Source: Ignavibacteriota bacterium
GTDB lineage: Bacteria; Bacteroidota; Ignavibacteria; UBA10030
Direction of reading: 5' to 3'
DNA length: 64,000 nucleotides
Assembly: GCA_963701295.1 (NCBI GenBank)
Contig: OY969585.1
Span: 3,008,001 to 3,072,000 of the forward strand
The notes beneath the pieces are model-generated. The model worked only from the letters and a program-made list of their open reading frames with translations, was not told the DNA's origin and searched no databases. Shown piece after piece: positions 23,020 to 49,248 of this stretch; positions within the stretch are counted from its first letter, which is position 1; each line of letters opens with the position of its first letter. Made by a program: the position numbers and the translations under genes.

Positions 23020-24015
23020 CTATTTCAATACTTCTTTCAACAGCCACGTATTCCAATTGACTGACCATTCATTTACATTTTTTTCTGTGATCGATGTTAG
23101 TGGACTATAGAGAAGGGGTTCATTTGGCGCTTTACTTTTGATTATTTTATCAAGTAATATTGCAACCGATTTATAACCCATCTGGAAACAGTTTATTCCA
23201 ACAAGGCCTTGTACGTAACCACTCTTCACATATTCCAATTCGACCGGCACTGCGTTCCCGGCGACTACTTTCACTTCGCCTGCTTTCCATTTTAAGCTAT
23301 TCTTCACCTGAAGCGCTGAACTGGTAATAAGTATCCACCCTGCAATATTGGGATTAGTTTTCTGTGCTCGATTTAAAGTTTCTGACGCTATTTCAGGAAT
23401 ATTTAAATTATGATAAATATTATCCTGAGGGAGAATGATATGGGGATGTTTTTTTAATTCTTCTTTAATTCCTTGAAGTCGACTCTGCAAATTCAAAGTA
23501 TTTTTAGGCCCAGCAAGAATGGCTATTATTCCCTTCTCATTGATTGCGTTTGCAAGTTCCTGCATTAGCATTCGGCCAAATTTAATGTCATCCGCTCCAT
23601 AGTAAGCAAATCGTTTACTCTTTGGCGCATCAGAATCGAAACATATGATTGGTACTCCTCTATCAATCGCCTTATCGATAACAGGTGTCAGAAAATTTGC
23701 ATCAGAGCAGGATATTGCAATGCCGTCAATTTTTAGACGGGAAAAACGCTCAATTGCATCTGTTTGTTCCTCTACATTTTCCACAGAAGGTGTCTGCCAA
23801 TCAATAACAATATCGACTTTATATTTTTGACCCAGCTCCCTTGCGGCTAATTTCGCCCCCGAATATGCCGCGATGAACACGGGATTTGTACCTATTTTCC
23901 CGATAAGACCAATTGTTATTTTCTTCTGGCTGGAATTATTCTTACCTGATTGCGCAAAAATTATTCCGAAGATCACAAACACCAAACAGAAGAGAAAAAT
24001 GAATCTGTGTTTCAT
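23020..24015 (-). CDS. Periplasmic sugar-binding protein (RbsB-like), no adjacent transporter
   Basis: Signal peptide, NPVF..AY.GA, DGIAIS, FDSDAP.SKR.AYYG.D; paralog of the next gene. Confidence 0.88.
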   Translation of the reverse strand: MKHRFIFLFCLVFVIFGIIFAQSGKNNSSQKKITIGLIGKIGTNPVFIAAYSGAKLAARELGQKYKVDIVIDWQTPSVENVEEQTDAIERFSRLKIDGIAISCSDANFLTPVIDKAIDRGVPIICFDSDAPKSKRFAYYGADDIKFGRMLMQELANAINEKGIIAILAGPKNTLNLQSRLQGIKEELKKHPHIILPQDNIYHNLNIPEIASETLNRAQKTNPNIAGWILITSSALQVKNSLKWKAGEVKVVAGNAVPVELEYVKSGYVQGLVGINCFQMGYKSVAILLDKIIKSKAPNEPLLYSPLTSITEKNVNEWSVNWNTWLLKEVLK

Positions 24016-24194
24016 ACTCTTCATATCCCTTCGTAGGTATCTCACATTTTGTATCTCTTAGAACAAACTCAACTACGCATTGTGAAAATGGTTACATCGT
24101 CAACGTTATATAGCATCCTGCTTGTTCTTTCGAAATGAAGATACTATCTAGTATCAAAAATGATATCTCCATCAATCATTAAAACTTTATAATT

Positions 24195-25193
24195 TTATTG
24201 ATTTACCGCTTCTTTGAGTAGCCACTTCTTCCAATTAAGCGACCATTCCTCCAGATTTTTTTCTGTGACACGAGTCGGTGGATCGACAATTAATTCTTCA
24301 GTCGGTGTCTGATTCTTCAGTATCTTATTTAGCAAAATTTCGACTGATTTATATCCCCACAAAAAACAGCCTTGCGCGATAAGAACTTGTACATGGCCAC
24401 TTTTTAAATACTCCAATTCACTAGGGAGTGCGTCGCAGGCAACGATCTTAACTTCTCCTGGTTCCCATTTTATTGCATTTTTTATCCAGAGCGGCCAGCC
24501 ACCGACAAATACCCAGCCTCCAATTTGAGGATTTGCTTTTTGTGCTCGAGCTACTACTTCAGATGCCCTCTCTGGAAGTTCATCATGATAAAAGACTCCA
24601 TTTGGCAAAAGTTTCATAGATGGATATTTGTTGAGTTCCTCAATGACCGCATGAATACGGCGTTGTAGATTCGGTGCATTCTTATTACCACCAATAATTG
24701 CCACGACTCCTTTTTCATTCATTACTTGAGCAAGCTCTTTCATGAGTATACGCCCAAATTCAGCATTGTCTGAACCATAATAGGCAAATCGTTTGCTCTT
24801 CGGTGCGTCGGCATCAAAACAAACAATCTGAGTGCCAAAATCCACAGCTTTATTAATGGATGGAGTAAGAATATTTGCATCACTGCAAGCGACAGCAATT
24901 CCGGCTACACCCGAACGGCTGAGTTGGTCAACTGACTGAGCTTGTTCCCGAGGATTCTCAGTTTTTGGAGTTTTCCATTCAATGATGACCTCAACACCGT
25001 ACTTGGCACCAATTTCTTTTGCAGCCACACGCGCCCCTGCATACGCGGCTATGAACACCGGGTTCGATTGACTTTTTCCAATGATACCTATAGTGATTTT
25101 TTTCGCATCTCCTTTTTTGTTAACATCTTGGGCAAAAATCTGTCCGTAATTTATAAGAAGTAAACAGATAAGAAAAACGAGTCTGTGTCTCAT
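24195..25193 (-). CDS. Periplasmic sugar-binding protein (RbsB-like), no adjacent transporter
   Basis: Same motifs as its neighbour; GAAAGGA RBS precedes MRHRLV. Confidence 0.88.
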   Translation of the reverse strand: MRHRLVFLICLLLINYGQIFAQDVNKKGDAKKITIGIIGKSQSNPVFIAAYAGARVAAKEIGAKYGVEVIIEWKTPKTENPREQAQSVDQLSRSGVAGIAVACSDANILTPSINKAVDFGTQIVCFDADAPKSKRFAYYGSDNAEFGRILMKELAQVMNEKGVVAIIGGNKNAPNLQRRIHAVIEELNKYPSMKLLPNGVFYHDELPERASEVVARAQKANPQIGGWVFVGGWPLWIKNAIKWEPGEVKIVACDALPSELEYLKSGHVQVLIAQGCFLWGYKSVEILLNKILKNQTPTEELIVDPPTRVTEKNLEEWSLNWKKWLLKEAVNQ

Positions 25194-25286
25194 AGTATTC
25201 CCATCCTTTCGCCTATTCAAAAATAATTTGTGCTTCATAGACTTTATTCTTTCACGTAACTCCTACTATAGGTCCTACAAGATAAT

Positions 25287-26894
25287 TTATCTAACTGTGT
25301 ACCCTACTTGCCTTTTAGTTTCTACAGAATTTTGAGAATTTTGTGAAAGTGCTCCATATCCACTTTGAGAGTTCAATTTGAACTGATTAACAAGTGTTTG
25401 AAGAGTTTCCGTTAATCGGTTCAAATCTTCTGCAGCGCGGGCAATCTGTTGAGTGCCCGAAGCTGTTTGCTGAGTGACACTAGCTATGGCTTCCATGTTC
25501 TTACTAATCTGTTCGCTGGTGCTCGATTGCTCTTCGTTCGCGACGGCAATCTGAGAGACCATGTGTGTCACTTTCTGTGATATCTCGACAATCTCTTTCA
25601 GCGACGCACCCGCATGATCTGCCAATACAATTCCTTCATCCACTTGCTTCGTCGCATTTGCCATTGTGCGAACTGCACCATGACTATCGGATTGAATTTG
25701 TTGAATCATCCCAGCAATTTGTTTTGTCGCCTTTGTGGTCTGTTCTGCCAGCTTCCTCACTTCATCAGCCACCACTGCAAAACCACGACCTTGCTCGCCC
25801 GCTCTTGCCGCTTCGATAGCAGCATTGAGAGCCAAAAGATTTGTTTGATCTGCAATATGTTCAATCACTCCAATGATCTCGCCGATCTGATCGCTCGATT
25901 TTCCAAGGTTTTGGATTGTTCCAGCCGATTCTCGCACAACATTAGCGATTTGTTTCATTCCGCTCACAGTATCTAAGACGACTTTTCCACCTTGCTCTGC
26001 AGCTCCTTTGGCTTTTTCTGCGGTATGCGCAGCCTCTCCTGCATTCTCAGAGTTCACAGCGATGCTTTTGGCCATTTGCTCAACAGCTCGTGCTATCTCT
26101 TCCGATTGAGTCGTTTGTTCTTGAGAACCTGCAGCCATTTCTTCGGTACTAGAGCTAATTTGTGCGCTTGCGCTCGCAACCGAAGTTGCCGTTTCGGATA
26201 CTTGAATCAATGTGTCACGTATGGAACCCACAAATCGATCAAAGGAATTTTGGAGTTGACCCATCTCATCTTCTCGGGTCGTATTAAATTGTGTGTTCAG
26301 ATCGGCATTATCGATACTCACTTGTATAGCCTGGAGGTCTTTTACCAAAACCTTTGCATATCTAATCACCCATACAATTCCTAATACAAGGATGATTAAA
26401 TTAATAATTGAAGCCAGCGCTACTTGTCTATAAACCGCAGCCATGACCGGCTCTATAGAAATGCCAACAATCGTAGTCCCCAATTTCCTTCCCTTATATT
26501 CAACCGGACGCAACTCCAAGACAATATCTTTTGCATCATCAAATTCTACCTGGCGCAGTAGAGTCGTTACGTCATATTTCAATTGTCGCGGATTATGCTC
26601 AACAATGGTTTGGTTGGATTCATCCATGATCAATATAAAAGCAACAGCAGGATCCTTCTTTGCCCAGTTGAAGGACGTTTGAATGAGATCAAAATTTCCG
26701 TCGTTCAATCCAGCTCCAACCGAAAAAGAAAGCGTTTCCGAAAGTAACCGGGCATTATTGTCAGACGCGTCACGTCCAGCCGACTTTTGATTGATCCAGT
26801 AGTAGATGATTCCGAAGAAAGTAATCACCAATAATGGAAGAAGAAAAATTGCAATCATTCTGGATGTTAATGATTTTTTAATTATGTCCATCAT
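25287..26894 (-). CDS. Methyl-accepting chemotaxis protein
   Basis: Two TM segments, a periplasmic domain, HAMP (DEMGQL) and the hairpin [38 protein letters not shown]. Confidence 0.97.
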
Positions 26895-27025
26895 GGCTGT
26901 GCTCCTTTAATATCATAATGATTGTGCCATAAACAGCAGAATCTTTTTCCGCCCAAATAGTTTTTTTCAATAAAAATTATGCCCCGTTACAATTTCGTAC
27001 TTTGCAAATATGCATTTTCGCCCCA

Positions 27026-27072
27026 ACAATAGCTATCAGCAATCCAATGATTTTTCGTCGGACTATTCCTAT
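27026..27072. promoter_or_regulatory. Repeated double-palindrome motif, copy A (upstream of the MCP)
   Basis: acaatagc-TATCAGC-aatccaa-TGAT-ttttcg-TCGG-actatt-CCTAT. Confidence 0.55.
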
Positions 27073-27162
27073 AGAAAGTCGCACAGAATAGTTCGATCGA
27101 ACAAGTGTCACCTTTATAGAATGAATAATATTTAAACCCTGTCTTATTTAGTAAAGACAGCA

Positions 27163-28464
27163 TTAGTTGTGTTTCATTTGTTTATAGCGTTTCAGCTTTC
27201 CTTTGACTGTATCGATGAGCATATCGCCTGAAAATGGCTTTGTCAGATAATCATCGGCACCGAGCCCTTTCCCATATCGTACCATACCCTCATCTGTCAT
27301 CCCACTCAGAAAAATGAATGGCACTAGACTTAGATGATGTAACTGTCTGACTTTCTCATAGAACGAGAAACCTCCTATTGTTGAGGTTTCAAGATTTATA
27401 TCAGAAATTATCAAGGAGGGCATGTCATTCTTAAGTCCGGTGAGCGCTTCATCGGATGTATTGTAAGCCTGTACGGTAAATCCCCCACCTTCAAGCACCC
27501 GTACGATCATTCCCAGAGTATTTTCATCGTCATCTATAACATAGAGCATAGGTTTATCCTGATGCTCTCCAAACTCCACAAGAACCTTTGATTCTATTCT
27601 CGAATGTGCTTCCGGCGAAATTTGGTACTTATTGCGAAGTTCATTAATAACTGCTGAGCGTTCCTTTGCATTCATGCCGGAAGTCCAGACCAGTGTAAAT
27701 GCATGTGAATAGGATTCTTCCTTAGCCTCTAACTCGAGCTTTGTATGCTCTTCCGTTGTAATGCGAAGGGTTGTTCGCAAATCTCGAAGTTGACTCTGTT
27801 CTTCCGGAGAGACTGCACCATCTGCCCACGCCAGCAACAACACTCGTTTATACATATCATGAGCTTGATCGATTGTTTTTTGTGTCTGCAAAACATCAGG
27901 AGCAATTTCCACTACCCTTCGCAGTACTTGTGCCGTTGCATTTTGCTGCATTGGCGTCTGTGTAGGTTTTTGTGTATGCACAGTCTCGATCATCTGCTGC
28001 GTTTCCATATGGACAGAATACGCTTTGTCAGAACTCTTTGGAGAAGTAACAGGTTCTTGCATTTGACGCGCCGCAGCATCACTCAGCAATTCATTATGTC
28101 GTTTTTCGGCTTCAAGTTTTTTTTGTTGCCATTCCTCACGTTGCGTCTGCTGATCAGTTTCTTTCTTTAACCGTTCCAATTCTGCACGCCGGCGATCCTC
28201 CTCAATTCTTGCTCGTGCAGTATTCTCCATAGCTCCGCGATTCGATACTGCAACATCCTTCTTCGCTGCTTCTTCTTTCAAGAAAGCGATCCGCTCTTGG
28301 AATGCATAGATGTATGCATTTGTTGGATCTATAATTCGTGCTTTGTCGAGATGTCCCTTCGCTTCTTCTAGAAGTCCGGCTTTAATACACTGATCAACCA
28401 CTTTTAGAATGAAGTTTGCTTCCGTTCGGACTTCTTCGTGATTATGTTGACTTGAGGGTGTCAC
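27163..28464 (-). CDS. Response regulator with TPR-like N-terminus, coiled coil, two TerB-like repeats and C-terminal REC domain
   Basis: AKGHLDKARIIDPTN; E/R/K-rich coil; LAWADGAVSPEE; REC motifs VIDDD, ISDINL, FLSG and YLTKPF. Confidence 0.8.
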   Translation of the reverse strand: MTPSSQHNHEEVRTEANFILKVVDQCIKAGLLEEAKGHLDKARIIDPTNAYIYAFQERIAFLKEEAAKKDVAVSNRGAMENTARARIEEDRRRAELERLKKETDQQTQREEWQQKKLEAEKRHNELLSDAAARQMQEPVTSPKSSDKAYSVHMETQQMIETVHTQKPTQTPMQQNATAQVLRRVVEIAPDVLQTQKTIDQAHDMYKRVLLLAWADGAVSPEEQSQLRDLRTTLRITTEEHTKLELEAKEESYSHAFTLVWTSGMNAKERSAVINELRNKYQISPEAHSRIESKVLVEFGEHQDKPMLYVIDDDENTLGMIVRVLEGGGFTVQAYNTSDEALTGLKNDMPSLIISDINLETSTIGGFSFYEKVRQLHHLSLVPFIFLSGMTDEGMVRYGKGLGADDYLTKPFSGDMLIDTVKGKLKRYKQMKHN

Positions 28465-28557: not shown

Positions 28558-30153
28558 TTAGCACCGTTCTTGATACCACCATCGTCTGACAATATCGCTC
28601 ACGCTCGTTGATGTATTACTTATTTTCCATTTATCAAAAAACTTTATATCCGCACTTGCAGGTTCCGGATTGGGAGGATCCATCTGTACTCGCAACGGCA
28701 TGGGAACTGCATCACCGACTATCAATGCCTCTCCTTGACGAAGCGAAGGAAGAAGGTTCTCTAGACCGGGAAAGGTGTCTGCAACAAGCCGACGCACATA
28801 ATTCTGATCAACCGGATTTGTAAGACGCATTACTACAAAATTGTTGCATTGAGACAGAATTGTCTCAGAAATATCAGATGGCCTCTGACTAACGATCATA
28901 CAGCTTACGCCATATTTTCTTCCTTCTTTCGCAATACGTTCGACAGTGCGTCTTGCAGATTGCGTGCCCCCGGCATTTGAAGATAGATAATTATGCGCTT
29001 CTTCAAAAACCAGGAGAATCGGACATTCGCGCCGATTAATATTCCAAAAATTAAAATCAAATGCGAGTCTTGCCATAAGGGAAACAACGGTGTTGACGAT
29101 ATCGAAAGGAACACCACTCATATCCATGATCGTTACTTTTGATTCACCATTCGACCCAAACATTTTTGTTAGTAATTCTGAGAACGATTCAGAGTGGATG
29201 TATAGTCTTGGCCGGAACATGAAGTCATATCGCGGATCGTTCAGTTTTGTATCAAGCTGTACAAGGAACCGGGCAAACTTGCCATGAAAGGGCCCGCCCT
29301 TCTCTGTCTCAAGAGCTTCTAACTTCGAACGCACCTTCGCAAAATCATAGTACACAGGCGTATCAATGGTGAGAACATTTTTTAATTCCGGATTTTGAAG
29401 GCGTTTTGCCTGGAATACCAGCTCTTTCAAAATAGTGATATGGGTCGCCGCGTTTTCATCTGCAAGATCAACAAACACCTCAGTCATTTCCTGAAACGTC
29501 ATCAACCAAAATGGCAACTCGAGTTCAGTCAAATTCAGATACTGACTGTTTTTCGGGAATGCACTTCTATATTCGTTATGTATATCCAAAATAACAACTT
29601 TCGTCGCAGGATTGCCGATAACCTTCTGCAGGATGGAAGCGACACTACACGACTTCCCAGAACCGCTTGCTCCAATGATTGCGATGTGTTTCCCAAAGAA
29701 ACGATTTGGATCAAGATAAGCACGTTCGTTTTCAAAGTGTGTCAGTGTACCGGTTGAAAATCCAAACTTTTGGAACACCGAAAAAGCAATAGCAAGGTCC
29801 TTTTCTTCCAGCAGATACACAGGTGCTTCTGCCGTCGGAAAAGCAGAAACTCCTCGCTCGAAGATACCGTTTTTCACCGAACCGACGAGGGAGATGATCA
29901 TCTCATAGTGAGCAGTGGTTTTCCCATTTTCACCATATTCCATTTTCCTGAATTCTGATACCATTCCCAATAGCACCTGTCTGCCAACAGGCACAAGTAC
30001 ATACGAACCAATCTGTCCAATAGGATATGTTTTTCCATTTAGTTGCAATGAGAGGCTTGATAGATGGGGATCAAGAGCAACGGTTGCATTTGAGGTCGTA
30101 ACCTTGCGAATAACACCGATCCGTTTTTGATCCCATATTGTTTTTACAGCCAT
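28558..30153 (-). CDS. HerA/DUF87-family ATPase
   Basis: HAS-barrel-like N-terminus (IGQIGSYV), Walker A GASGSGKS, ILDIHNEY, Walker B VFEEAH, IAKEGRKYG and VSQRPS. Confidence 0.9.
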   Translation of the reverse strand: MAVKTIWDQKRIGVIRKVTTSNATVALDPHLSSLSLQLNGKTYPIGQIGSYVLVPVGRQVLLGMVSEFRKMEYGENGKTTAHYEMIISLVGSVKNGIFERGVSAFPTAEAPVYLLEEKDLAIAFSVFQKFGFSTGTLTHFENERAYLDPNRFFGKHIAIIGASGSGKSCSVASILQKVIGNPATKVVILDIHNEYRSAFPKNSQYLNLTELELPFWLMTFQEMTEVFVDLADENAATHITILKELVFQAKRLQNPELKNVLTIDTPVYYDFAKVRSKLEALETEKGGPFHGKFARFLVQLDTKLNDPRYDFMFRPRLYIHSESFSELLTKMFGSNGESKVTIMDMSGVPFDIVNTVVSLMARLAFDFNFWNINRRECPILLVFEEAHNYLSSNAGGTQSARRTVERIAKEGRKYGVSCMIVSQRPSDISETILSQCNNFVVMRLTNPVDQNYVRRLVADTFPGLENLLPSLRQGEALIVGDAVPMPLRVQMDPPNPEPASADIKFFDKWKISNTSTSVSDIVRRWWYQERC

Positions 30154-30201: not shown

Positions 30202-32499
30202 TTAATCGTATACTGCTGCAATTTTGGATGCACCATAAATTTCATTGTTCACCAACATCACCATATCCTCCGAATCAAACGGCTTCTGAAGAAATGGTAA
30301 TTCTTGTACGAGAGTACTCATATCACTCGGCAGATTTTCTATTAAGCTCCCGCTCATGCCTATGATTTTAATGTTTGGATTTATTCTCCTGAGGGCAGGA
30401 ATTGTTGTAAGTCCATTCATATTAGGCATCAACATATCAAGCAGCACAACATCGATCTTATTTCTATTTTTTTCATAGATCGAAATCGCTTCATGTCCGT
30501 CAAACGCAGTCATTACTTTGAATTTTCTGCTTTCGAGCGTAGCCCGTACAAGATCCTGCAAGCTTTTTTCATCATCGACAACAAGAACAGTTTCTCCATG
30601 TCCCATCGATAGGTTGCTGCCTCTCGCAACATGTTCCTTTACTTTTTCTTCTTTGGCGGGGAGGAATACCTTAAACTCTGTTCCTTTGCCGAGTTCGCTA
30701 TGGACATCTATGAAACCACCGTGGCTCTTTACAATGCTTAATACTGAAGAAAGGCCTAAACCAGTTCCTTTGCCCGGTTCCTTTGTAGTAAAAAATGGAT
30801 CGAATATTTGATTTATAATCTCTGGAGCGATTCCAGTACCTGCATCTTTTACACTAAGGACAACATAGGGTCCCGGTACCGCTCTAAAATGCAAACCTGC
30901 TTCCTGTTCATTGAGGACAACATTTTGCAAATCGATGGCAAGCGTTCCACCATTTGGCATAGCATCTCGGGCATTGATCGAAAGATTCATTAATACCTGA
31001 TATAACTGCGTTGCATCTCCCTCAACATTCCAGATTCCTTTCGGACAATGCCTTCTTACTTTTACCATAGGCGGGAATGTTTCTGAAACGAAATTGAGCA
31101 ATTCCCATAAGAGATGCTTAAGTTGAAGAGTCACATGTTCACCTTGCACTCCTCGCACAAACGACATCAGTTGTCTTACAACCCCTTCTCCACGCTTTGC
31201 CGAACTTTCCAATGTTCGTAAAATATCTTGGCTCGTTTCATCTGTGAGCTTCTCCTTCATAAAGGGAACAGCCAGAATAATGGGTGTAAGAATATTGTTA
31301 AGGTCATGCAAAAGTCCGCTTGCCAAAGTGCCCACACTTTCCAACCGTTGAGCACGAAGGAACTGCTGTTCTATAATTTTCTTATCGGTGATGTCTGTAT
31401 TAATAGTTAGGATTGATTTCGGCCGCCCATATTCATCCCGCACAAGACTCCATCGGCTTTCCATAACAATGGTTTTGTGCGTCTTTGTGACTTGCTTCAA
31501 TTCACCAAACCAAGAGCCCTTATCTTTCACATCGAGCAATGCATGTTTTATACTGTCCGCTTCCGTATGGAGTAGTTGGGATGCATTTTTTGCTAGAGCT
31601 TCATCCCGCTTCCACCCATAAATTCTCTCTGCACTATTGTTCCAATAGATTATATTATCATCCAGGTCTCGAACAACAATCGCATCCTGTGCAATATCCA
31701 GCAAATTTGCTTGTTCTCTAATTTTTTCTTCCGCTCGTTTACGCTCAGTAGCATCTTGCATATAAATCGCAAGGCCATCTTCCGCAGGATATGCCCTAAC
31801 TTGCAGCCATGAATTTAACGCTGAATAGTATTCTTCAAATTCCGCAAACTTGTGGTCTGTCATTGCACTATGTAATGCTTTATATGCTACGGAGTCCTTT
31901 GGTGCTGGGAATTCACTCCACCAATTTTTCCCCCAGAGGTCTTCGCGCCGCTTGTTTACTTTTGCCAAGAAGACATCCGATCTCGGATTCAAGTACTTAA
32001 CTTCCCATGAGTTGCTCACCGAAAAAAAAGCATCTGTAATACTGTCAAAGATGGTGATTATTTGTTTCTGAGATCGTTCGAGCTCTTCTTCCAATCGCTC
32101 GTTTTCCCACTCTGCTCTCCGCTTTTCAAGAGCATTCTGGATGGCACCAGGTAACCGGCGAAGACTCGATTTCAGAATGTAATCATCGGCGCCTTCTTTG
32201 AGACATTCCACTGCTATTTCTTCATTCTTCATTCCAGTAACGAGAATAAATGGAATTTTTGTCCCTCTTTCACGAACGATCTTCAGCGCCTCTAGACCAC
32301 TGAACTGAGGTAATGAATAATCTGCAAGCACTACGTCCGGAGAGAATGTTTCAAGCTCCTTTAAGAATTTACTCTTGGAAGCAACTCGGCGTGTGTTATG
32401 TTCAATGTTTGCGTTCCGAAGTTCTCGATCGATCATTTCAGCATCGATAGGAATATCTTCTAGAATCAGAATGTTTAAAATTTCGGCTTGTTGTATCAT
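30202..32499 (-). CDS. Hybrid histidine kinase REC-PAS-PAS-HisKA-HATPase-REC
   Basis: LILED...ADYSLP...DYILK, two PAS/PAC segments, HDLNNIL, NARDAM, FDPFFTTK..GKGTGLGL and a C-terminal REC. Start moved to MIQQAE to avoid overlap. Confidence 0.93.
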   Translation of the reverse strand: MIQQAEILNILILEDIPIDAEMIDRELRNANIEHNTRRVASKSKFLKELETFSPDVVLADYSLPQFSGLEALKIVRERGTKIPFILVTGMKNEEIAVECLKEGADDYILKSSLRRLPGAIQNALEKRRAEWENERLEEELERSQKQIITIFDSITDAFFSVSNSWEVKYLNPRSDVFLAKVNKRREDLWGKNWWSEFPAPKDSVAYKALHSAMTDHKFAEFEEYYSALNSWLQVRAYPAEDGLAIYMQDATERKRAEEKIREQANLLDIAQDAIVVRDLDDNIIYWNNSAERIYGWKRDEALAKNASQLLHTEADSIKHALLDVKDKGSWFGELKQVTKTHKTIVMESRWSLVRDEYGRPKSILTINTDITDKKIIEQQFLRAQRLESVGTLASGLLHDLNNILTPIILAVPFMKEKLTDETSQDILRTLESSAKRGEGVVRQLMSFVRGVQGEHVTLQLKHLLWELLNFVSETFPPMVKVRRHCPKGIWNVEGDATQLYQVLMNLSINARDAMPNGGTLAIDLQNVVLNEQEAGLHFRAVPGPYVVLSVKDAGTGIAPEIINQIFDPFFTTKEPGKGTGLGLSSVLSIVKSHGGFIDVHSELGKGTEFKVFLPAKEEKVKEHVARGSNLSMGHGETVLVVDDEKSLQDLVRATLESRKFKVMTAFDGHEAISIYEKNRNKIDVVLLDMLMPNMNGLTTIPALRRINPNIKIIGMSGSLIENLPSDMSTLVQELPFLQKPFDSEDMVMLVNNEIYGASKIAAVYD

Positions 32500-34470: not shown

Positions 34471-36176
34471 GCTACCTTCCCAAAATGATGGGCAACTAAT
34501 TCGATAAATCGACCTACATCGATAACTAAAATAACACTCCCGTCTCCAAGAATAGTAGAACCCGCAATACCAGGAACATCACCGAGGTAATTGCCCAATG
34601 TCTTGATAACTACCTCTTTCTGTCCTTGGAGAGAATCGACGAGAAGTCCAATTCTTTTTTCTGCCCATCCGACTATCACAACATATGAAACAACCGAGTG
34701 TTGAATAGTTTGGTTTTTTCCAATGATGTCGGACATTCTTGCGAGCGGCAGAATAGTATCACGCACTCGTATAACTTCACGTCCTTGAATGCTGTAGATT
34801 TCTTCAGGAGTAATCCGAACGATTTCGAGTACTGCACTCAACGGAACAGCAAATATCTCATCAACTACTTTCAAGAGGAGACCCTGAATAATCGCAAGTG
34901 TCAAAGGTACCTTCAAAGTAATGATTGTTCCTGTCCCTACATTTGAATCGATCTCGACGATACCTTTTAATTTTGCTATGTTGGTTTTGACAACATCCAT
35001 TCCAACCCCTCTTCCCGACACATTTGTAATTTCTTGTTTCATGCTAAAACCCGGAATAAAAATTAAATTGAGAGCATCGGATTTTGACATTTCTGTCGCT
35101 TCAATTTCTGAAATCAACCCCTTTTCGATCGCTTTCTTTTTTGTTTTATCAATATCAATGCCGCGGCCATCATCTTCCATGGTGATCAGAATGTAATTTC
35201 CATCACGCTCTGCGTTGACTACAACTATTCCTTGCGCCGGCTTCCCTTTGCTCTTTCTCTCTTCGGGAGATTCGATGCCATGATCGACGGCATTACGAAT
35301 CATATGAATGAGTGGATCTTTTAATTCTTCTATAATGGATTTATCTAATTCAGTTTCTTTTCCATAGATCTGGAGATCGACTTCTTTCCCTGTCATGCGC
35401 ATAACCTCTCGGGCAACAAGCGGAAGTCCGCTGAACACTTTTTCTATTGGAACCATTCGTGTTTTCATGACCGCCATTTGAAGTTCCGTTGTCACAAAAT
35501 CAATCTGACTGCTGACATCGGCAATCTGCTTCGACATGTCTAAACGTTCATATTTTTCCGTCAAGGATTGTGTAGCTTGTGAAAGACGGTTGCGAGCAAG
35601 GACAAGTTCTCCGATAAGATTCATCAAATCGTCAAGTCTGTCAACATCAACTCGGATGGTTGTATCAACTGCATGTTGAGGCTGAATCTCAGTCAGTTCA
35701 GCACCATGGACAATTGGTTCTAGTATTGATGATGCTTCAGCTTGAACTGAAACCGGCGTAGTTTGCTGTTGCATCCCTCTCCGCAATTTTTCTAGAATAC
35801 TATCCATTTCTATAGGTTGCAGATTCCGACTTTCAATCCGCTGTAAGAGCACACCCGCGGTCTTATGAACGTCGATAAGCACATCAATTATTTCACTAGT
35901 GGCAGTGCAGTCGCCCTTCCGAAGTTTATTCAACAGGTCTTCACTCGTATGTGCCAATTCAGCAATTTGGTTGAATCCAAGAAATGACGATGTTCCTTTT
36001 AGTGTGTGCATTTCTCTGAAAATATTGTTCAGCACATTCACATCTAATGGAGCTTTTTCCAGTGCAAGCAGATCCTGACTCAAGTGATCGAGAATTTCCC
36101 TTGCTTCAACAAGATAGCTTTCGAATATTTCCCGCATCTCTTCATCAAAACCAGGTGCTGTCTGTTCATTGTCCAT
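34467..36176 (-). CDS. cheA: Chemotaxis kinase CheA (short, apparently lacking P2)
   Basis: Hpt FREMHTLKG, TIRVDVDRLD, HMIRNAVDHGIE, SGRGVGMDVV and a C-terminal CheW domain; 569 aa. Confidence 0.96.
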   Translation of the reverse strand: MDNEQTAPGFDEEMREIFESYLVEAREILDHLSQDLLALEKAPLDVNVLNNIFREMHTLKGTSSFLGFNQIAELAHTSEDLLNKLRKGDCTATSEIIDVLIDVHKTAGVLLQRIESRNLQPIEMDSILEKLRRGMQQQTTPVSVQAEASSILEPIVHGAELTEIQPQHAVDTTIRVDVDRLDDLMNLIGELVLARNRLSQATQSLTEKYERLDMSKQIADVSSQIDFVTTELQMAVMKTRMVPIEKVFSGLPLVAREVMRMTGKEVDLQIYGKETELDKSIIEELKDPLIHMIRNAVDHGIESPEERKSKGKPAQGIVVVNAERDGNYILITMEDDGRGIDIDKTKKKAIEKGLISEIEATEMSKSDALNLIFIPGFSMKQEITNVSGRGVGMDVVKTNIAKLKGIVEIDSNVGTGTIITLKVPLTLAIIQGLLLKVVDEIFAVPLSAVLEIVRITPEEIYSIQGREVIRVRDTILPLARMSDIIGKNQTIQHSVVSYVVIVGWAEKRIGLLVDSLQGQKEVVIKTLGNYLGDVPGIAGSTILGDGSVILVIDVGRFIELVAHHFGKVA

Positions 36177-36219: not shown

Positions 36220-36831
36220 TCAACTGCTTTTTTCATTTTCTTTCCACGCCGTCACAACTTCATCGATCTTTGATTGATGTTCTGGTGTTTTCATGTACGA
36301 AGCATTAACATCGAACGATTTGGGACCGGCTTTATCCTCTTCAACATAACGTCTCGCTTCGTCGGTTTTCTTCTTCGCAGTTTCAAAATAATTCAGCTCA
36401 TTCAGCAATTCCTTGCGAACTGACTCTATCAGATGGTTTGCTGCGCCAATTTTCTGTGCCGTTATATCCTGTACCTGTAAAGCTACCGTGATATTGCTTG
36501 TATTCTCCTTCAATTCTAATAGGGTTTGTCTGATTCCTGTAAGCATTAATAGTTGACGTTCAGAAATTCCTTTCTCATCGAATTCTTTTAAACCATTCTC
36601 TACCATATGAATCTTCGTTCCCATCTGGTCGAGTACGTCGAGAATTTCAACTGTAGCAAGTTCCGTCGCTTGTGTTACCGTGTTCAATTGAACCGATGCA
36701 TTAGGAATCTTACTCGAACTGTCTTCAATTGCATTCTTGATGCGATCGAGCAATGTAATAACCTTCTGGAGTGCAGTAATTACGCTTTCTGTTGTCCCTG
36801 CATCCTCATTCACTTTTTTTTCATCTGGCAT
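36220..36831 (-). CDS. cheZ: CheZ-like phosphatase
   Basis: L..VTQATE.AT..IL and LQVQDITAQ (DxxxQ); acidic C-terminal peptide IDEVV. Confidence 0.75.
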   Translation of the reverse strand: MPDEKKVNEDAGTTESVITALQKVITLLDRIKNAIEDSSSKIPNASVQLNTVTQATELATVEILDVLDQMGTKIHMVENGLKEFDEKGISERQLLMLTGIRQTLLELKENTSNITVALQVQDITAQKIGAANHLIESVRKELLNELNYFETAKKKTDEARRYVEEDKAGPKSFDVNASYMKTPEHQSKIDEVVTAWKENEKSS

Positions 36832-36900: not shown

Positions 36901-37638
36901 TTATAATTGTCCGGCACGTGCCTTACTTAACAAGGACTCAACCATCTTCTTCCGCTCTATATCACCTACGATTTCCGGATCATTCGGAAGTGGAAGATTG
37001 ATGGAGAGCGGCTGAACTGTTGGAATGCTAAAGAATCCAGTTGTGAGCTTTCTCAGCTCTTCAGCAACCGCCTGGATCGTACCCATGACTGTACCAATGT
37101 GTTGCTGAGTGATATCCTGCACTTGAAGTGCCATCATAATTTCTGTGCAATCATCTTGAAGGTCCTTCAACAATCGTTCTAGATTGCTTGTCGGACCGCT
37201 CATTTTCATACTGCGAAGGTGCGCTGCCCACGCTTCAGCAAGCGCTACAATGTCCGCATCCCAACCCGATTTCTCGACCAATGTCTTCACGATTCCTGCC
37301 ATTTTATTCGTTGCAACACCAAGATCAGATGCTATCATACCTGAGGACACAGAAGTGATTACTTGGTCAAGTGTTGCCACCATTTTATCCAACGTATTTA
37401 ATATTTGGGTAGACGCTTGTTCCGTCGCTTCTGTCACACGTCCGAGTTGACCGGCAGCCTTGGGGATATTCACCATCGCCACTTCCAGCACTGCTTTGAG
37501 ATCTTCAATAGCTGGACTAATATCATTCAGAAAACCAGCAATTTCATCGAGAACCGGTATAGTTCGCTGACCGTATTCACAGAATACTTTCACTTCAGCG
37601 GCTTTTTGTAAAACTTTTTCAACTTCCTGTTGATTCAT
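36901..37638 (-). CDS. cheZ: CheZ-like phosphatase (second paralog)
   Basis: LGRVTEATEQASTQIL and MALQVQDITQQ. Confidence 0.72.
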   Translation of the reverse strand: MNQQEVEKVLQKAAEVKVFCEYGQRTIPVLDEIAGFLNDISPAIEDLKAVLEVAMVNIPKAAGQLGRVTEATEQASTQILNTLDKMVATLDQVITSVSSGMIASDLGVATNKMAGIVKTLVEKSGWDADIVALAEAWAAHLRSMKMSGPTSNLERLLKDLQDDCTEIMMALQVQDITQQHIGTVMGTIQAVAEELRKLTTGFFSIPTVQPLSINLPLPNDPEIVGDIERKKMVESLLSKARAGQL

Positions 37639-37690: not shown

Positions 37691-38083
37691 CTATTCCGTA
37701 CTCACTTGAACGGTCTTGAGAATACCCTCGATCTTCTCTTTCAATTCCTGCGGCGTGAATGGTTTCATAATGTAACTATTAACTTTTGCCTGAAGTGCCT
37801 CTACGACATCATGCTCGGTTCCGCGGGTGGTGATCATGAGAATCGGCATGGATGAATACAATGGATTCGATCGAACAATTTTGATAAAATCCAATCCGTT
37901 CATTTCGGGCATATTCCAGTCGGTAATAATAAAATCCACTTTGCCGCTTGGAAGTTTTTCAAGTGCCTCTTTTCCATTTGAGGCTTCAATTGTATCTGTG
38001 AAACCCACAGTCTTTAACGCATTAGTGATAATGCGTCGTATGGTGATCGAATCATCCACAATGAGAATCTTTATTGATGCCAT
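37691..38083 (-). CDS. cheY: CheY
   Basis: Motifs LIVDDS.TIRRI, ITDWNMPEMNG, PILMIT and YIMKPF. Confidence 0.9.
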   Translation of the reverse strand: MASIKILIVDDSITIRRIITNALKTVGFTDTIEASNGKEALEKLPSGKVDFIITDWNMPEMNGLDFIKIVRSNPLYSSMPILMITTRGTEHDVVEALQAKVNSYIMKPFTPQELKEKIEGILKTVQVSTE

Positions 38084-38175
38084 GGTACTATCCTTTTATA
38101 GTTTTATTAATAATATTTTTTCTTATTCTTTCTATTATTCATCTTTTTTCTATATCAAAGTGCAACTTTGTGTGC

Positions 38176-38223: not shown

Positions 38224-38225
38224 GC

Positions 38226-38612
38226 TCACCCTGTATGTGGAATTGTTTTATGGACAAATCGAAAAACTTCTCGTTGAATGGCTTCAGTGCTGAGAGGTTT
38301 TTCTAAAAATGCAAGCGCTCCACTTTCTAATGCAAGGTCTTTGTCCTTCAAATCGGTCATCGAAGAGAGGACGATAATCGGGATATCCTGATACTCGGGC
38401 GTCTCTCGAAGTGTACGGATGAATTCATATCCATCCATATCTGGCATATTAAGATCGGTGATGATGAGATCGAACTTTTCTGACGGCATTCGCTCCAGCG
38501 CTTCTATTCCATCTCCCGCCGTAACCACTCGAAATCCTTTCATATTCAATGCTGCAGCAACGAACTTCCTCACAGTCGCTGAATCGTCTACAACTAGGAC
38601 TACTTTTTCCAT
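38226..38612 (-). CDS. Single-domain CheY-like response regulator
   Basis: Motifs VVDDS, ITDLNMP and FLEKP. Confidence 0.9.
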   Translation of the reverse strand: MEKVVLVVDDSATVRKFVAAALNMKGFRVVTAGDGIEALERMPSEKFDLIITDLNMPDMDGYEFIRTLRETPEYQDIPIIVLSSMTDLKDKDLALESGALAFLEKPLSTEAIQREVFRFVHKTIPHTG

Positions 38613-38618
38613 ACTCTA

Positions 38619-39500
38619 CTACTCCTTCTTATAAGCGGTCGTCTTAGGAATGCTCACCAGTTTAAATGCGGTTGAAATCCTGTGCAACATTTCCGAGAAA
38701 CCTATAAAGAGATATCCGCCCCGATTGAGGCTGTTGAACAGATCTCCAACAACCTGGATTTTTGCCTTCTCATCAAAGTAAATGAGAACATTTGCGCAAA
38801 AAATGAAATCGAAGTGCATCATGTTCCGCATCTTTTCCCGATCTATCAAATTAATGTATTCGAAACGAACCAGTTCTTTTACTTCTTTTCGCAATCGATA
38901 GACACCGTTGGATTGGTCAAAATATTTATTCAAATATAGTTTCGGCGTATTGCGGATTGCATATTGATTGTATTCTGCTTTGTGTGCCATGTCGAGTACT
39001 GCTCTATTAATATCTGTGCCGATGATTTCGATACGCAACTCCGGATATCGAGGTTTAAGGTGTTCGAGATACAACATAGCTAATGAATAAGGCTCTTCCC
39101 CGGAAGAACATGCAGCACTCCATATTCTCAGTGTTCGATTATTATATGCCTTCTTTGCTTCGATGACTTCTTCAGCAAATTTCTTTTGAAATGCATCGAT
39201 CTGCGCATCGTTCCGAAAGAAAAATGTTTCGTTAATTGTGATCATATTGCATAAAAATTCAAATTCACAATCTTTTTGCTGACCGTACCTCAACAAATGA
39301 AGATACTCTTCGAAATGGTCGACCTTGAGTACTTGCAGGCGTTTGACAAGTCTTCCCTCGATTAAGTACTTCTTCTTCTCAGGGAAAAAGATACCAGTTT
39401 TCGAATAGATGAAGTCCCTTAGCATAACGAAGGTTTCTGCCGTAAGCTTCGGAGAAGAGTCAACTCGGATTCTATCTTGGGCCTGTTCAAACACGATCAA
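38619..39500 (-). CDS. cheR: Chemotaxis methyltransferase CheR
   Basis: Motifs TINETFFFR, IWSAACSSGEEPYS, GTDIN, FCANVLIYFD and GGYLFIG. Confidence 0.96.
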   Translation of the reverse strand: MIVFEQAQDRIRVDSSPKLTAETFVMLRDFIYSKTGIFFPEKKKYLIEGRLVKRLQVLKVDHFEEYLHLLRYGQQKDCEFEFLCNMITINETFFFRNDAQIDAFQKKFAEEVIEAKKAYNNRTLRIWSAACSSGEEPYSLAMLYLEHLKPRYPELRIEIIGTDINRAVLDMAHKAEYNQYAIRNTPKLYLNKYFDQSNGVYRLRKEVKELVRFEYINLIDREKMRNMMHFDFIFCANVLIYFDEKAKIQVVGDLFNSLNRGGYLFIGFSEMLHRISTAFKLVSIPKTTAYKKE

Positions 39501-40951
39501 GTTGCTCCACGATCAAGTGACTCATTTCTGTAATTTGATGTAATCGCTTCCAATGGAATTCCAGCAGCTTGGAACGCCATAAGAGCGGCTTCTCGCACCA
39601 TCTCGTTTTCGTCTTCGACAAATCGAGCGATACATTCTAAAGCACGGCGTGTTGGCATAGTTACAAGCTGTTCGATCATATGCACACGAGACCAAGGATC
39701 CATGTCAACCATAACTCTTTGAAGAAATACAGCAGCACGATCACAGTCGATTCGAAAGAGTGTATCTGCAATAATTTCCCAATCTTCTTGATTCGCCTCG
39801 TACCAAGCTTCTGAGGCTATATCAAATGCCCGTTCCAATTCACTGTCATCAATCCTGTATCCACGAAAACCCTTATAGGAACGCACAAATTCACCGGCAA
39901 GTTTACCAAGCAGCATCATGATCTGTATTTTTCCACGTGTTATTCCTGCTTCGAGGCACTCGACAGCTATTTGAAAGACACGTGGTCGGACTGACATCTG
40001 CGCTACTATGACACAATCCATCTCTTCAGAAATCCCAAGAGAAAGAAGCAGTTCTTTTGTTACAACAGGATCCTTAAATTGAATAAGTCCTTTTGCGGCA
40101 CTCAGTTGAATTTGATGATTATCATTATGCAAAGCGTGCAGTAAATCATTTCGCATTTTGTCATCTAATTGATATTCTAGATTACATCGTTCGATGATTA
40201 ACATAACTTCGTGCAGCAGTATATCCCGAAGTGGATCTTTGATAGCTTCATAATTTGCTAGAAGCACTTCAAGTGTATCAGCATCTCCTACAATTCCTAA
40301 AGCGTCGAGCAACGCGAAGAGATATATTTGCTCCGCGTTGCCGACGTTGATTGCATCCCGATATTTACCCTCGAGGTATTCACGGACAGAATCGCCGCCA
40401 ATTTTTCCGAGCGCTTCAATTGCAATGATACGGGTGAATGGATAATGCTCAAACGTATTGAAAATTGGTTTAACCGCTTCTCGGCTACCGATATTGCCGA
40501 TAGCCTCAATGGCTGCAACAAGGACATTCTGATCTTGATCTCTCAAGAGCGGTAAAAGGTAATAAATAGGCTCCTTGCTCTTGATTTCGCCAAGAATATC
40601 CACTGCTAATTTGCGAATGTCCTTGTCAAGATCACTCAAATATGGAACAAGTGCGTGAACGGAAGCTCCTCGTAATTGTACGAGCAATTTTGCAGCGAGG
40701 TTTCGAGAAGTGATATTTTCATCCCCGATATGATGGACGATCGCACGAGCAGTAGCCACTCCACCGATGCTAAGAAGTGTACGTGAGACAGCATCCTCGA
40801 CTCCTCTGTTTTCATCCCCCAAGGCCGTGGAAAGAACTGCAAGGGCATTCCGGTCATCACATCCAGATAGATCTTCTGCAGCTCTGCGTCGGACATCAGG
40901 ATCCGGATCTGTCAGCAGAAGACAGATAAGGTTGTTCGTATGTTTATTCAT
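39497..40951 (-). CDS. HEAT/PBS-lyase repeat protein
   Basis: Repeated L.D.D..VR..A...LG units; its stop overlaps the cheR start. Confidence 0.9.
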   Translation of the reverse strand: MNKHTNNLICLLLTDPDPDVRRRAAEDLSGCDDRNALAVLSTALGDENRGVEDAVSRTLLSIGGVATARAIVHHIGDENITSRNLAAKLLVQLRGASVHALVPYLSDLDKDIRKLAVDILGEIKSKEPIYYLLPLLRDQDQNVLVAAIEAIGNIGSREAVKPIFNTFEHYPFTRIIAIEALGKIGGDSVREYLEGKYRDAINVGNAEQIYLFALLDALGIVGDADTLEVLLANYEAIKDPLRDILLHEVMLIIERCNLEYQLDDKMRNDLLHALHNDNHQIQLSAAKGLIQFKDPVVTKELLLSLGISEEMDCVIVAQMSVRPRVFQIAVECLEAGITRGKIQIMMLLGKLAGEFVRSYKGFRGYRIDDSELERAFDIASEAWYEANQEDWEIIADTLFRIDCDRAAVFLQRVMVDMDPWSRVHMIEQLVTMPTRRALECIARFVEDENEMVREAALMAFQAAGIPLEAITSNYRNESLDRGAT

Positions 40952-41111
40952 AGGGCTTACTTTTAAAAATTCTGGCTCAATTTATTTATCATGAGTTGCC
41001 CATAGGTACTCTTTCAGAATCTCGACTCATTTTGTCAATTCAAGCAGAAGACTCTTTTACAGCTTACTTCGCAGCACTTATTCATATTCACCTTCATCAT
41101 TACATGCCTCT

Positions 41112-42086
41112 TTAATCTGACATGCTTGGCAGTGCAATAACTTTCTGGATATCCGGATCATCAAGATTATCACGAGTTATCACGCACACATCGATGTCAA
41201 TCTTGGAGGGAACTTTCTTTCCACGAATATAATCGACAATTGTCTTAACACAAAAGTATCCCATCCGTGCTGGATCTTGGGTGACAAGTGCACTGATTTC
41301 ACCATTCTTTAATGCTTCAACTGCAGGAGCCGGTGAATCGAAACCAACAAATTTGACTTTACTGGTCAGGTTAAGCTTTCGTAAAGCAAGAAGCATACCC
41401 ATTGTTGATTGTTCATAAGAGCAGAAGATACCATCAGCTTCCTTTAGTTTATCAGCTATCTTCATACATTCATTCAAAGTTTCTTCTGTTGTACCGCTCA
41501 CATATCGATTCTTCTCGATCAAATGAATGCCTTTGTATTTTGATATAGCTTCAAGAAAACCTTCTTCACGATTCGTAATATTGGATTGGCCAACTTTGAC
41601 TCGCAGCATAACAACCTTACCTTTTCCTCCAAGGAATTTGACTAATTGCTCACCTGCAATACCCCCTGCTTTTTTGTTGTCTATACCGACGATACTGATG
41701 AAATCTTTTCCTGGTGTTCCTTTAAGCACACTATCAAAAATTAGGACAGGTATTTTTTTCTTTGCAGCTTTAGCAACTGGTCCAGCTAAAGCTTCCTTGT
41801 CCAATGGTGCGAGAGCTATCCCAGACATACTATCATTGATGCACTGCTCAACAATTGAAATCTGTTGTGCCACATCATCATCCTTTAACGGAGCTTTCCA
41901 GACAACCTCAACACCTCCTAAGGCAACCGCTCCTAATTTTACACCTGAGTGTACTGATTTCCAGAAAATGGCAGAGTTGCTTTTAGGAATAATAGCAATC
42001 CTAATTTTTTCTTGTGGAAGTACAATTGTCCATATTCCAGACATAAGGATCAAAATAAACAGGAAATCAATAATTTTCTTTTTCAT
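41112..42086 (-). CDS. Periplasmic sugar-binding protein (RbsB-like) inside the che cluster
   Basis: Signal peptide, IAIIPK....FWKSV..G, GIALAP, REEGF, VGFD and QDPARMGY. Confidence 0.9.
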   Translation of the reverse strand: MKKKIIDFLFILILMSGIWTIVLPQEKIRIAIIPKSNSAIFWKSVHSGVKLGAVALGGVEVVWKAPLKDDDVAQQISIVEQCINDSMSGIALAPLDKEALAGPVAKAAKKKIPVLIFDSVLKGTPGKDFISIVGIDNKKAGGIAGEQLVKFLGGKGKVVMLRVKVGQSNITNREEGFLEAISKYKGIHLIEKNRYVSGTTEETLNECMKIADKLKEADGIFCSYEQSTMGMLLALRKLNLTSKVKFVGFDSPAPAVEALKNGEISALVTQDPARMGYFCVKTIVDYIRGKKVPSKIDIDVCVITRDNLDDPDIQKVIALPSMSD

Positions 42087-42177
42087 AATTCTATCTCTTT
42101 CGTTTAAATACATTTTGCATTGAAAATAAATAATGCGGAATAAGTTTCCTGCTCGTTATAATTTTTATCTAATCGAT

Positions 42178-42681
42178 TTAGCTTGTTGACTCAAGTTGTT
42201 GTTTCTCTTTATCTCGAAGAAGTCGTTCGAGATCTAAAAGAATGAGTAAACGATTCTCGAGCTTTGCGACAGATATGATATACTCTGATCCGATACCGGC
42301 AATAATGGCAGGTGGTGGTTCTGTTATATTTTTGGGAATCCGTATCACCTCACGTACTGTATCCACAATAAAACCAACAACCATGCTGCCTAATTCGACG
42401 ACAATAATACGTGTATTTTTATCGCTTTCTTTTGGAGGGAATCCAAAGCGTTTTCTTAAATCAATGATAGGAATAACTTTTCCACGGAGATTAATGACAC
42501 CTTTGACAAACTCCGGTGAATTCGGCACTCTTGTAATCTCTACCATTCTATTAATTTCCTGAATGCTTTGGATATCTAATCCGAACTCTTCTTGCCCAAT
42601 CGTAAAACTCACAAGTTGAAGAAGCTCTTCCGTCTGAGCTTTCACTCCCCTCTGTGTCTTTAGATCCATTGTAGTTGTCAT
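42178..42681 (-). CDS. cheW: CheW
   Basis: Motifs QLVSF, IQEIN, ITRVPN, GVINLRGKVIPIIDLR and GFIVD. Confidence 0.96.
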   Translation of the reverse strand: MTTTMDLKTQRGVKAQTEELLQLVSFTIGQEEFGLDIQSIQEINRMVEITRVPNSPEFVKGVINLRGKVIPIIDLRKRFGFPPKESDKNTRIIVVELGSMVVGFIVDTVREVIRIPKNITEPPPAIIAGIGSEYIISVAKLENRLLILLDLERLLRDKEKQQLESTS

Positions 42682-49239: not shown

Positions 49240-49248
49240 AGTCCTGAG

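Follow-up and report, generated by a model that had tools for sequence, protein, structure and literature searches.

A stretch of 64,000 nucleotides from an Ignavibacteriota bacterium (contig OY969585.1, positions 3,008,001 to 3,072,000 of the forward strand; hereafter the window) carries a run of chemosensory (che) genes that continues into a gene for a HerA-type ATPase, here called HerA1. We found that this run encodes an intact, selected, non-flagellar chemosensory system of the F15 type with a fixed arm composed of a hybrid histidine kinase, HerA1 and a response regulator with ENT-like repeats and a receiver domain (ENT-REC), and that no defence effector is encoded beside HerA1. On sequence grounds, we assign a probability of about one half to the reading that HerA1 is a partner-gated ATPase switch, set by a phosphorelay within a pathway paralogous to the F15 one, and not a nuclease motor. 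The genome of the window (G000; other G numbers denote genomes of relatives) is a single contig of 3.64 Mb and is 99% complete.

The linkage of the arm was followed in HerA1 loci with at least about 74% identity, to which two fragmentary loci were added, for a total of 25 genome and 34 metagenome loci; each count leaves out the loci with less than 600 nucleotides of flank, some contigs occur in both sets, and related genomes are not independent. In all 24 genome and all 25 metagenome loci with such a flank, the gene immediately 5' of HerA1 encoded the hybrid kinase. The ENT-REC regulator gene came immediately 3' of HerA1 in 24 of 24 genome and 31 of 31 metagenome loci, and cheA/cheB stood no more than 7 kb upstream in 21 of 21 genome and 19 of 19 metagenome loci. 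An earlier note on this DNA had made linkage of HerA and the receiver-bearing regulator to che genes in relatives the test of its proposal, and this linkage held in every informative locus. It persisted across locus GC contents of 41-63%, while the small histidine kinase (HK), the methyl-accepting chemotaxis protein (MCP), cheW and the sugar-binding proteins (SBPs) shifted or vanished: of 21 long loci, 4 had no call for the small HK, which is GAF-fused in G475, and the MCP gene lay 3' of the regulator in 17 of the 21 and upstream in the other four. A 117-residue gene without a Pfam match was observed between cheA and cheB (L045:5594-5947) in G488 and L220, where the small kinase was not called. 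HerA is the most conserved protein of the island at distance, with identities in the most distant clusters of 76-78%, compared with 73-76% for a NarL-type regulator described below, 52-57% for CheA, 49-56% for the hybrid kinase and 46-50% for the ENT-REC regulator. The dN/dS of HerA1 was 0.022-0.041 in four pairwise comparisons, lowest or near lowest of an island in which every gene was at or below 0.35 and most were at or below 0.2; HerA1 is under strong purifying selection.

As first reported, 17 genes lie between positions 23020 and 42681, all on the minus strand, with order and coordinates borne out (Table 1). Pfam supports the labels CheW, Peripla_BP_4 (three proteins), HEAT, CheR, two single REC, REC-CheB, HAMP-MCP, HisKA-HATPase, REC-PAS-HisKA-HATPase-REC, DUF87/HerA and the REC of the regulator, and both CheZ genes exceeded the PF04344 cut-off of 30.7 (33.8 and 32.9 bits) and carry DxxxQ; only the 'TPR' and 'TerB' labels of the regulator fell away. 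CheA, of 569 residues, has Hpt, dimer, HATPase and CheW domains, with one Hpt and no REC, and CheR has 293 residues without TPR. What we take to be the catalytic and phospho-acceptor motifs are intact in CheA, CheB, CheR, both CheY, both CheZ, both kinases, HerA and the regulator. The overlapping stop/start junctions noted earlier number three: HEAT/cheR (TTGA), cheA/cheB (ATGA) and cheB/HK (TAATG; HK start 33313). Gaps measure 6 nucleotides at cheR/cheY1, 37 at HK/hybrid kinase (hybrid start 32499), 48 at hybrid kinase/HerA, 93 at HerA/receiver and 268 at receiver/MCP, and do not exceed 93 anywhere from cheB to the regulator. A recent foreign insert as the origin of the island was rejected, GC contents being 41.3% versus 42.4%.

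The order of the cluster, W-(SBP)-HEAT-R-Y-Y-Z-Z-A-B...M, follows, with insertions and duplications, that of class F15, listed as WRYZAB...M with CheZ and a 40-heptad (40H) receptor (S1 Table, PMC9321776). The MCP is 40H by count, with about 141 residues per arm about a hairpin tip at residue 367 and ends set by eye. Judged by gene order, CheZ and the 40-heptad receptor alone, the cluster matches class F15; it has neither the CheA:REC fusion and CheR:TPR of class ACF nor the CheA with 5-6 Hpt domains and REC of class Tfp. G000 holds one each of cheA, cheB, cheR and cheW and two MCPs, the second of which (C1:221892-223541, L093), with a weak Tll0287-like domain, probably provides the single CheA with another input. 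FliG, FliN and flagellin gave no profile match in G000, the same searches matching in 4 of 14 control genomes, and none of the 15 genus relatives yielded a FliG. In relatives with flagella, this che core, including the HEAT gene, runs directly into flagellar basal-body genes, of which FliG was identified by profile and the others are presumed. Because the flagellar copy has HEAT as well, the gene is not peculiar to the new output. Most flagellar copies read have one cheZ; G083 has two.

Among 201 genomes of the order, 64 copies of this CheA type were found in 62 genomes. FliG lies within 8 kb of 34 copies, at 8-20 kb from 4 and on another contig for 5; 17 copies lie beside HerA1, 1 has HerA1 on another short contig, and 3 are near neither; the split HerA1 of G002 was added to these counts from a separate search. 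All 18 HerA1 carriers have this CheA type, 17 of them on the same contig within 9 kb. In a CheA tree of 23 rows without an outgroup, 11 sampled HerA-linked CheAs were split from 12 others by a branch with support of 100/99. Two flagellated genomes, G455 and G475, each carry a flagellar and a HerA-linked CheA, and these copies are not sisters (approximately unbiased test, p-AU 2e-12). Since the HerA-linked CheAs form a separate clade and both copies coexist, the cluster is a dedicated paralog and not a leftover, namely a flagellum-independent paralog of the order's flagellar F15 cluster; a recent orphan of the flagellar cluster was rejected on the same evidence. Among FliG-less relatives, G481 (L288:6661-19214) shows the order cheW-HEAT-cheR-Y-Y-Z-A-B followed by a gene for a 1085-residue TPR protein and an ENT-REC gene, an arrangement that is either an independent recruitment or an earlier state; the placement of its CheA gave p-AU 0.38. 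Two further FliG-less loci, L122 (G032) and L290 (G426), keep a flagellar-clade che core followed by two genes that we take to be sigma-factor-like and HDOD-like. A second, distant CheA type (frames of about 770-790 residues) is patchy in the family (L130 of G007, G006, G010, G017 and G020).

HerA1 has a HAS barrel and intact ATPase motifs, as in defence-type HerA. Its best profiles were the PADLOC HerA PDLC04105 (E 6e-147) and the anti-phage HerA NF042944 (E 1e-121; 407 bits, under the curated cut-off of 850); similarity to the HerA-NurA type NF040937 was much weaker (E 4e-37), and the closest solved relatives are 9c1m, 8ziq, 8xau and 8wiv. The earlier note had named NurA and Sir2 among the partners of known HerA ATPases; NurA (PF09376; control matches in 7 of 14 genomes) and SIR2_2 had no match in G000. 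A Cap4/DUF4297 search of G000 gave no match, but is uninformative, its control matching 0 of 14 genomes. In all informative loci, the neighbours of HerA1 are the hybrid kinase and the receiver protein, with no nuclease or SIR2 effector gene adjacent, and one HerA query from genus g40 found no match in viral contigs. When 151 class and 301 phylum genomes were searched at identities of at least 44%, the lineage was found nowhere but in this order and in family f17, and it is present in 24 of 24 genomes of family f1. The HerA tree (33 of 45 rows kept; support for the whole-lineage clade only 87/87) follows family labels; within f1, a duplication gave HerA2 and a HerA3/HerA1 pair. The HerA1 of G455 and that of the f7 genome G475 nest among the paralogs of f1, a grouping with the f7 HerA being rejected (p-AU 2e-82); the trio therefore moved with the che genes, and the nesting of the G475 copy points to a transfer of the island. 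The lineage is fixed and vertically inherited, unlike the sporadic SIR2-type-linked HerAs (L111, L112 and L116).

HerA of 8XAU alone was described as a split spiral of very low activity, and binding of its DUF4297 partner at HAS gives a complex that turns over ATP; R284, and K287 in an insertion subdomain, grip DNA (PMC11291478). Partner binding through HAS was reported for HerA elsewhere as well (bioRxiv 10.1101/2024.10.24.620088). K285 of HerA1 aligns with R284, and the insertion subdomain (about 286-319 in 8XAU, holding K287) is absent; basic residues at the R284/K287 place are also absent in the SIR2-type-linked L111 and L116. The loop of HerA1 at the insertion is 8-12 residues shorter than those of HerA2 and HerA3. 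With K285 kept and the insertion lost, HerA1 may or may not translocate DNA. G000 has two other HerA copies. HerA2 (C1:3489524-3492393, L086), 60% identical to HerA1, lies 3' of a 410-residue SpoIIE/PP2C phosphatase whose GAF-like N-terminus is an ESM Atlas lead. HerA2 is 3' of PP2C in 17 of 18 and 10 of 11 loci and 5' of it in 10 of 10 loci of genus g40, the pair being common to families f1, f2 and f5, with the order swapped in f17. HerA3 (C1:1-5692, L087) has a CHASE3-HAMP-GAF hybrid kinase and a REC kinase on its 5' side in the three genomes of genus g1 that were read, and is beside kinases only in that genus.

The ENT-REC regulator consists of a helical hairpin and coiled coil (residues 4-133), two ENT-like three-helix repeats (about 196-299) and a C-terminal REC. 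Its middle domain passes the Pfam cut-off for ENT (30.6 bits against 28.5) and fails that for TerB PF05099 (20.9 against 24.4); in 40 homolog domains at E<=0.05, ENT matches 39 and TerB matches 29 weakly. The former 'TerB' was accordingly replaced by a pair of ENT-like repeats, and the former 'TPR' had no Pfam match, the N-terminus being predicted as a helical hairpin leading into a long helix. A model of the middle domain (pLDDT 89) gave Z scores of 8.8 with TIC110 (rmsd 3.7, 90 aligned), 7.7 with ENT (5.8, 71) and 5.4 with TerB-like 2OU3 (4.6, 75), all in the range common for helical bundles. Foldseek returned nothing at E<=0.001 for this domain, ESM Atlas matches of 0.78-0.83 (ENT, TerB and DjlA-like) are leads only, and fold searches with the whole regulator gave receivers only; neither Pfam nor fold comparison revealed a recognisable catalytic domain. 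Of the 151 class genomes, 26 yielded the ENT-like domain, and 17 of these 26 belong to the 21 that have this HerA lineage, a count in which kin are not independent. Prediction of a 1:1 complex of HerA1 and ENT-REC from paired 24-row alignments gave a median of 0.27 against a mark of 0.32 (runs of 0.45, 0.27 and 0.06; controls not folded); it was counted neither for nor against binding, and a 1:1 model cannot show interfaces shared between subunits.

On the input side, the SBPs had been called transporter-less, and this holds beyond the window: the RbsC-type permease PF02653 had no match anywhere in G000, with control matches in 12 of 14 genomes. Because of this, the three SBPs cannot serve a cognate importer of that family; they probably act as sensory proteins at the MCP, and are clean candidates for purely sensory use. 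The SBP1 place holds two copies in G002 and none in G019 or G557, and an SBP2/3-type gene lies downstream in 14 of 21 long loci. Directly 3' of SBP3 is a sugar-phosphate nucleotidyltransferase-like gene (window 21832-22737), homologs of which, at 36-37%, lie upstream of the flagellar che clusters in G455 and G475. A pentose-utilisation-type cluster is found at window 48652-56513 (HAD hydrolase, fucose/arabinose isomerase-type, class II aldolase, GH127, FGGY kinase and aldose epimerase).

The genes of the 17-gene run are real, but the conserved island extends beyond it, upstream to a PAS kinase-NarL pair at 43317-46753. All nine HerA-linked clusters tested have this pair ahead of the core, with a NarL ortholog of 73-90% identity, and the island is therefore larger than first stated, with a DNA-binding member. 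A divergent REC-HisKA kinase (window 47094-48404) faces the PAS kinase, and a divergent REC-containing gene occupies the same place in G019 and G557. The palindrome ATCAG-N7-CTGAT, a candidate operator upstream of cheW, is exact in G000, G019 and G557 and has one mismatch in G002; five distant clusters have no exact copy, and G000 has 7 exact copies against 4.2 expected. A promoter and terminator scan of 21500-41400 gave 39 and 13 sites, compared with 43.5 and 15.5 in shuffles, and Rfam had no match in the window. A hairpin at 27139-27160, directly 3' of the receiver gene, is only a hint that MCP-SBP-SBP may form a separate unit. In four peat metatranscriptomes from three studies, sequence of relatives was found in 29-30 of 30 bins of the region. 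Among the matches listed, RNA contigs span HerA/hybrid kinase, HK/cheB, cheA/cheZ2, cheZ2/cheZ1 and cheZ1 to cheR, and none spans the HerA/receiver junction; these are unstranded contigs, each run covers at most 0.11 of words, and the comparison is without a silent-stretch control.

In the pathway that we propose, the orphan SBPs would deliver ligand to the MCP, which would signal to CheA. Either CheA, assisted by CheB/CheR adaptation and a double set of CheY/CheZ, or the sensor-less HK would phosphorylate the N-terminal REC of the hybrid kinase, much as CheA3 phosphorylates the REC of the hybrid kinase CheS3 in Rhodospirillum centenum Che3 (PMC3868531). The hybrid kinase would then set the state of the ENT-REC protein, and either of these two would dock on the HAS barrel of HerA1 and toggle its ring between a state of low ATPase activity and one of high activity, in the way that DUF4297 acts on its HerA. 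That it is phosphorylated ENT-REC that caps HAS and turns the ring on is conceivable but doubtful. We would suggest only tentatively that domestication of an anti-phage-type HerA in these bacteria was accompanied by loss of the nuclease or NADase partner and by triplication into a general signalling hub, with one copy gated by GAF-PP2C and another by the chemosensory phosphorelay through such a cap. A role of the ring in remodelling protein complexes or the nucleoid is a guess.

Several observations weigh against gating of HerA1 by the pathway, and most of them favour a possible, though not the likelier, alternative: that the outputs are CheY-HEAT, the kinases and NarL, acting in gene regulation or development, and that HerA1 is a co-transcribed duplicate of a housekeeping DNA motor, regulated at most in its expression. 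NarL, conserved in every cluster tested, and CheY-HEAT offer outputs that need no HerA, and HEAT-CheY coupling has been described for Cpc7-CheY7 of Myxococcus xanthus Che7 (PMC11514114). The sister paralog HerA3 follows what we take to be sucD in 19 of 19 metagenome loci, usually with a presumed ndk next, HerA2 is often near mutS, and the HerAs of families f7 and f9 have no adjoining kinase or phosphatase. From HerA3 at sucD and these f7 and f9 HerAs, it follows that the lineage needs no signalling neighbours. PP2C occurs in 104 of 151 class genomes, compared with 21 for this HerA; seven of the eight ENT-like-domain matches in G000 lie away from any HerA, six of these seven proteins carrying REC; and G481 has che and ENT-REC genes without HerA1. 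The retained K285 would suit a DNA motor. Moreover, an island inherited or transferred as a block keeps its synteny without function, and fixed yet functionally unrelated che neighbours are on record, namely cheY-prmA and cheZ-trhP (PMC9321776). Against a housekeeping duplicate, HerA1 was never seen apart from the kinase and receiver, whereas the genes for HK, MCP, CheW and SBPs change position; two more HerA copies are already present in G000; and HerA1 lacks the subdomain bearing the DNA-gripping lysine of 8XAU.

Three other explanations fit worse than both partner gating and the housekeeping duplicate. The earlier note had seen no flagellar or pilus genes, which is true of the window; elsewhere, G000 has a six-gene PilT/PilB-type operon (C1:3517842-3526615), in which a PilT-like ATPase (TIGR01420, 316.4 bits against a cut-off of 319.1) adjoins a second T2SSE-type ATPase and other genes are presumably pilC, M, O and Q. 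Its PilB-like gene is two open reading frames in the assembly, of 102 and 496 residues. The pathway might thus steer a pilus or secretion-type machine for surface motility or uptake, with the trio as an adaptor. We consider this improbable: CheA is unlike that of class Tfp, the PilT-like gene is present in 37 of 41 relatives of the order whether or not they have the island, N-methyl pilin had no match in G000 (control matches in 8 of 14), and the operon is about 470 kb away. It is still less probable that HerA1 remains an anti-phage ATPase, partnered by ENT-REC or an unlinked effector, whose immunity is tuned by the che pathway. Its best profiles are of defence type, and TerB-like domains are associated with stress and phage responses; nevertheless, the NF042944 score is far under the cut-off, the SIR2_2 and NurA searches of G000 and the viral-contig search with one g40 query were negative, the regulator shows no catalytic domain, and the lineage is fixed in f1 and follows family taxonomy. 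A decaying relic of flagellar chemotaxis after loss of the flagellum, suggested by the core order shared with the flagellum-linked cluster, the absence of the cluster from G007 and the split HerA1 in the G002 assembly, is contradicted by the intact motifs, the dN/dS values, the separate CheA clade coexisting with a flagellar copy and related sequence over the region in four RNA libraries (contigs only), and is very improbable.

Two further features of the window were observed. An IS1595-family transposase fragment lies beside an AcrB-type gene (window 13569-17551; Pfam match from model position 107, with a 95-residue open reading frame before it) that looks split. A lower-GC stretch (36-37%) at window 57046-58582 holds an HTH gene and a gene for a protein with a weak DnaJ match.

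Table 1. Features of the chemosensory island in window coordinates (the last row gives coordinates on C1 of G000); labels are from Pfam unless another basis is stated
Feature	Position	Strand	Basis
Membrane PAS-domain HisKA_3 histidine kinase	43946..46753	-	Pfam; 5' of NarL in HerA-linked clusters read upstream
NarL/LuxR-type REC-HTH regulator (D54), candidate transcriptional arm	43317..43949	-	Pfam, conservation
Palindrome ATCAG-N7-CTGAT, candidate operator	42946..42962	.	265 nucleotides upstream of cheW; inferred
cheW, sole copy in G000	42178..42681	-	Pfam, genome profile search
RbsB-type sugar-binding protein 1 (SBP1), secreted; varies among relatives	41112..42113	-	Pfam
HEAT-repeat protein, also in the order's flagellar che cluster	39497..40951	-	Pfam, neighbourhoods
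cheR	38619..39500	-	Pfam, motifs
cheY1 (D53)	38226..38612	-	Pfam, motifs
cheY2 (D55)	37691..38083	-	Pfam, motifs
cheZ1 (DxxxQ, D175-Q179)	36901..37638	-	Pfam, motifs
cheZ2 (DxxxQ, D122-Q126)	36220..36831	-	Pfam, motifs
cheA (one Hpt, H57; no REC), HerA-linked clade	34467..36176	-	Pfam, tree, motifs
REC-cheB (D67; S191, H218, D314)	33313..34470	-	Pfam, motifs
Sensor-less HisKA kinase (HK), LvrA-like core	32537..33313	-	Pfam, profiles
Soluble hybrid kinase REC-PAS-HisKA-HATPase-REC, both Asp and His present	30202..32499	-	Pfam, motifs
HerA1: HAS barrel, Walker A 161-168, EEAH, KEGRKYG, SQRP; anti-phage-type lineage, no effector neighbour	28558..30153	-	Profiles, motifs
Response regulator (ENT-REC), 433 residues, C-terminal REC (D355)	27163..28464	-	Pfam, predicted structure
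Transmembrane MCP: two transmembrane helices, HAMP, about 20 heptads per arm	25287..26894	-	Pfam, heptad count
RbsB-type sugar-binding protein 2 (SBP2)	24195..25238	-	Pfam
RbsB-type sugar-binding protein 3 (SBP3), 53% identical to SBP2	23020..24045	-	Pfam
Other ENT-like proteins in G000	C1:131776-134380, 302403-303515, 462899-463576, 1230708-1232069, 1397268-1399834		Profile search

The outputs of most non-motility chemosensory systems are not known. If HerA1 is gated by the phosphorelay, the island would represent a new kind of chemosensory output, a pathway with an ATP-driven ring motor as its effector, in which an ATPase of defence lineage has been recruited to everyday signalling, and the ENT-REC regulators, a family expanded in this lineage, could be assigned a function. 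The system is suited to such study: the genome is complete, contains a single che system and shows no flagellar match, and the three proteins of the invariant arm are soluble and amenable to purification. Che systems with non-motility outputs are known, as are HerA rings gated by a partner; their union is apparently undescribed: among the titles and abstract openings searched, mostly from outside subscription journals, none describes a che-HerA arrangement.

Compared with known systems, HerA-NurA end resection shares a HerA/DUF87 ATPase and differs in its partner and in its weaker similarity. The DUF4297-HerA and Sir2-HerA complexes (8XAU, 9C1M, 8ZIQ and 8WIV) are closer, with full-length homology, the HAS barrel, the ATPase motifs and the C-terminal hook region, and partner binding via HAS is the activation route described for them; HerA1 differs in having no nuclease or SIR2 neighbour, in its fixed and vertical lineage and in the lost insertion subdomain. 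R. centenum Che3 (CheA3-CheS3-CheY3) is likewise a non-chemotactic che cluster with a hybrid kinase bearing an N-terminal receiver; its CheA is itself hybrid, and its abstract mentions neither HerA nor ENT-REC (PMC3868531). M. xanthus Che7 also combines a HEAT-repeat protein with a single-domain CheY in a non-flagellar setting, whereas HEAT is here shared with the flagellar cluster copy (PMC11514114). Class F15 is the nearest in its che core, that is, in the cheW-cheR-cheY-cheZ-cheA-cheB...MCP order, the CheZ phosphatase, the receptor length by count and the FliG-adjoining copies of the same core in the order. The present cluster differs from it in having two CheZ, in that FliG was not found in 16 of 18 carriers, and in that the kinase-HerA-ENT/REC arm occupies the place 3' of cheB where the flagellar copy has its flagellar genes.

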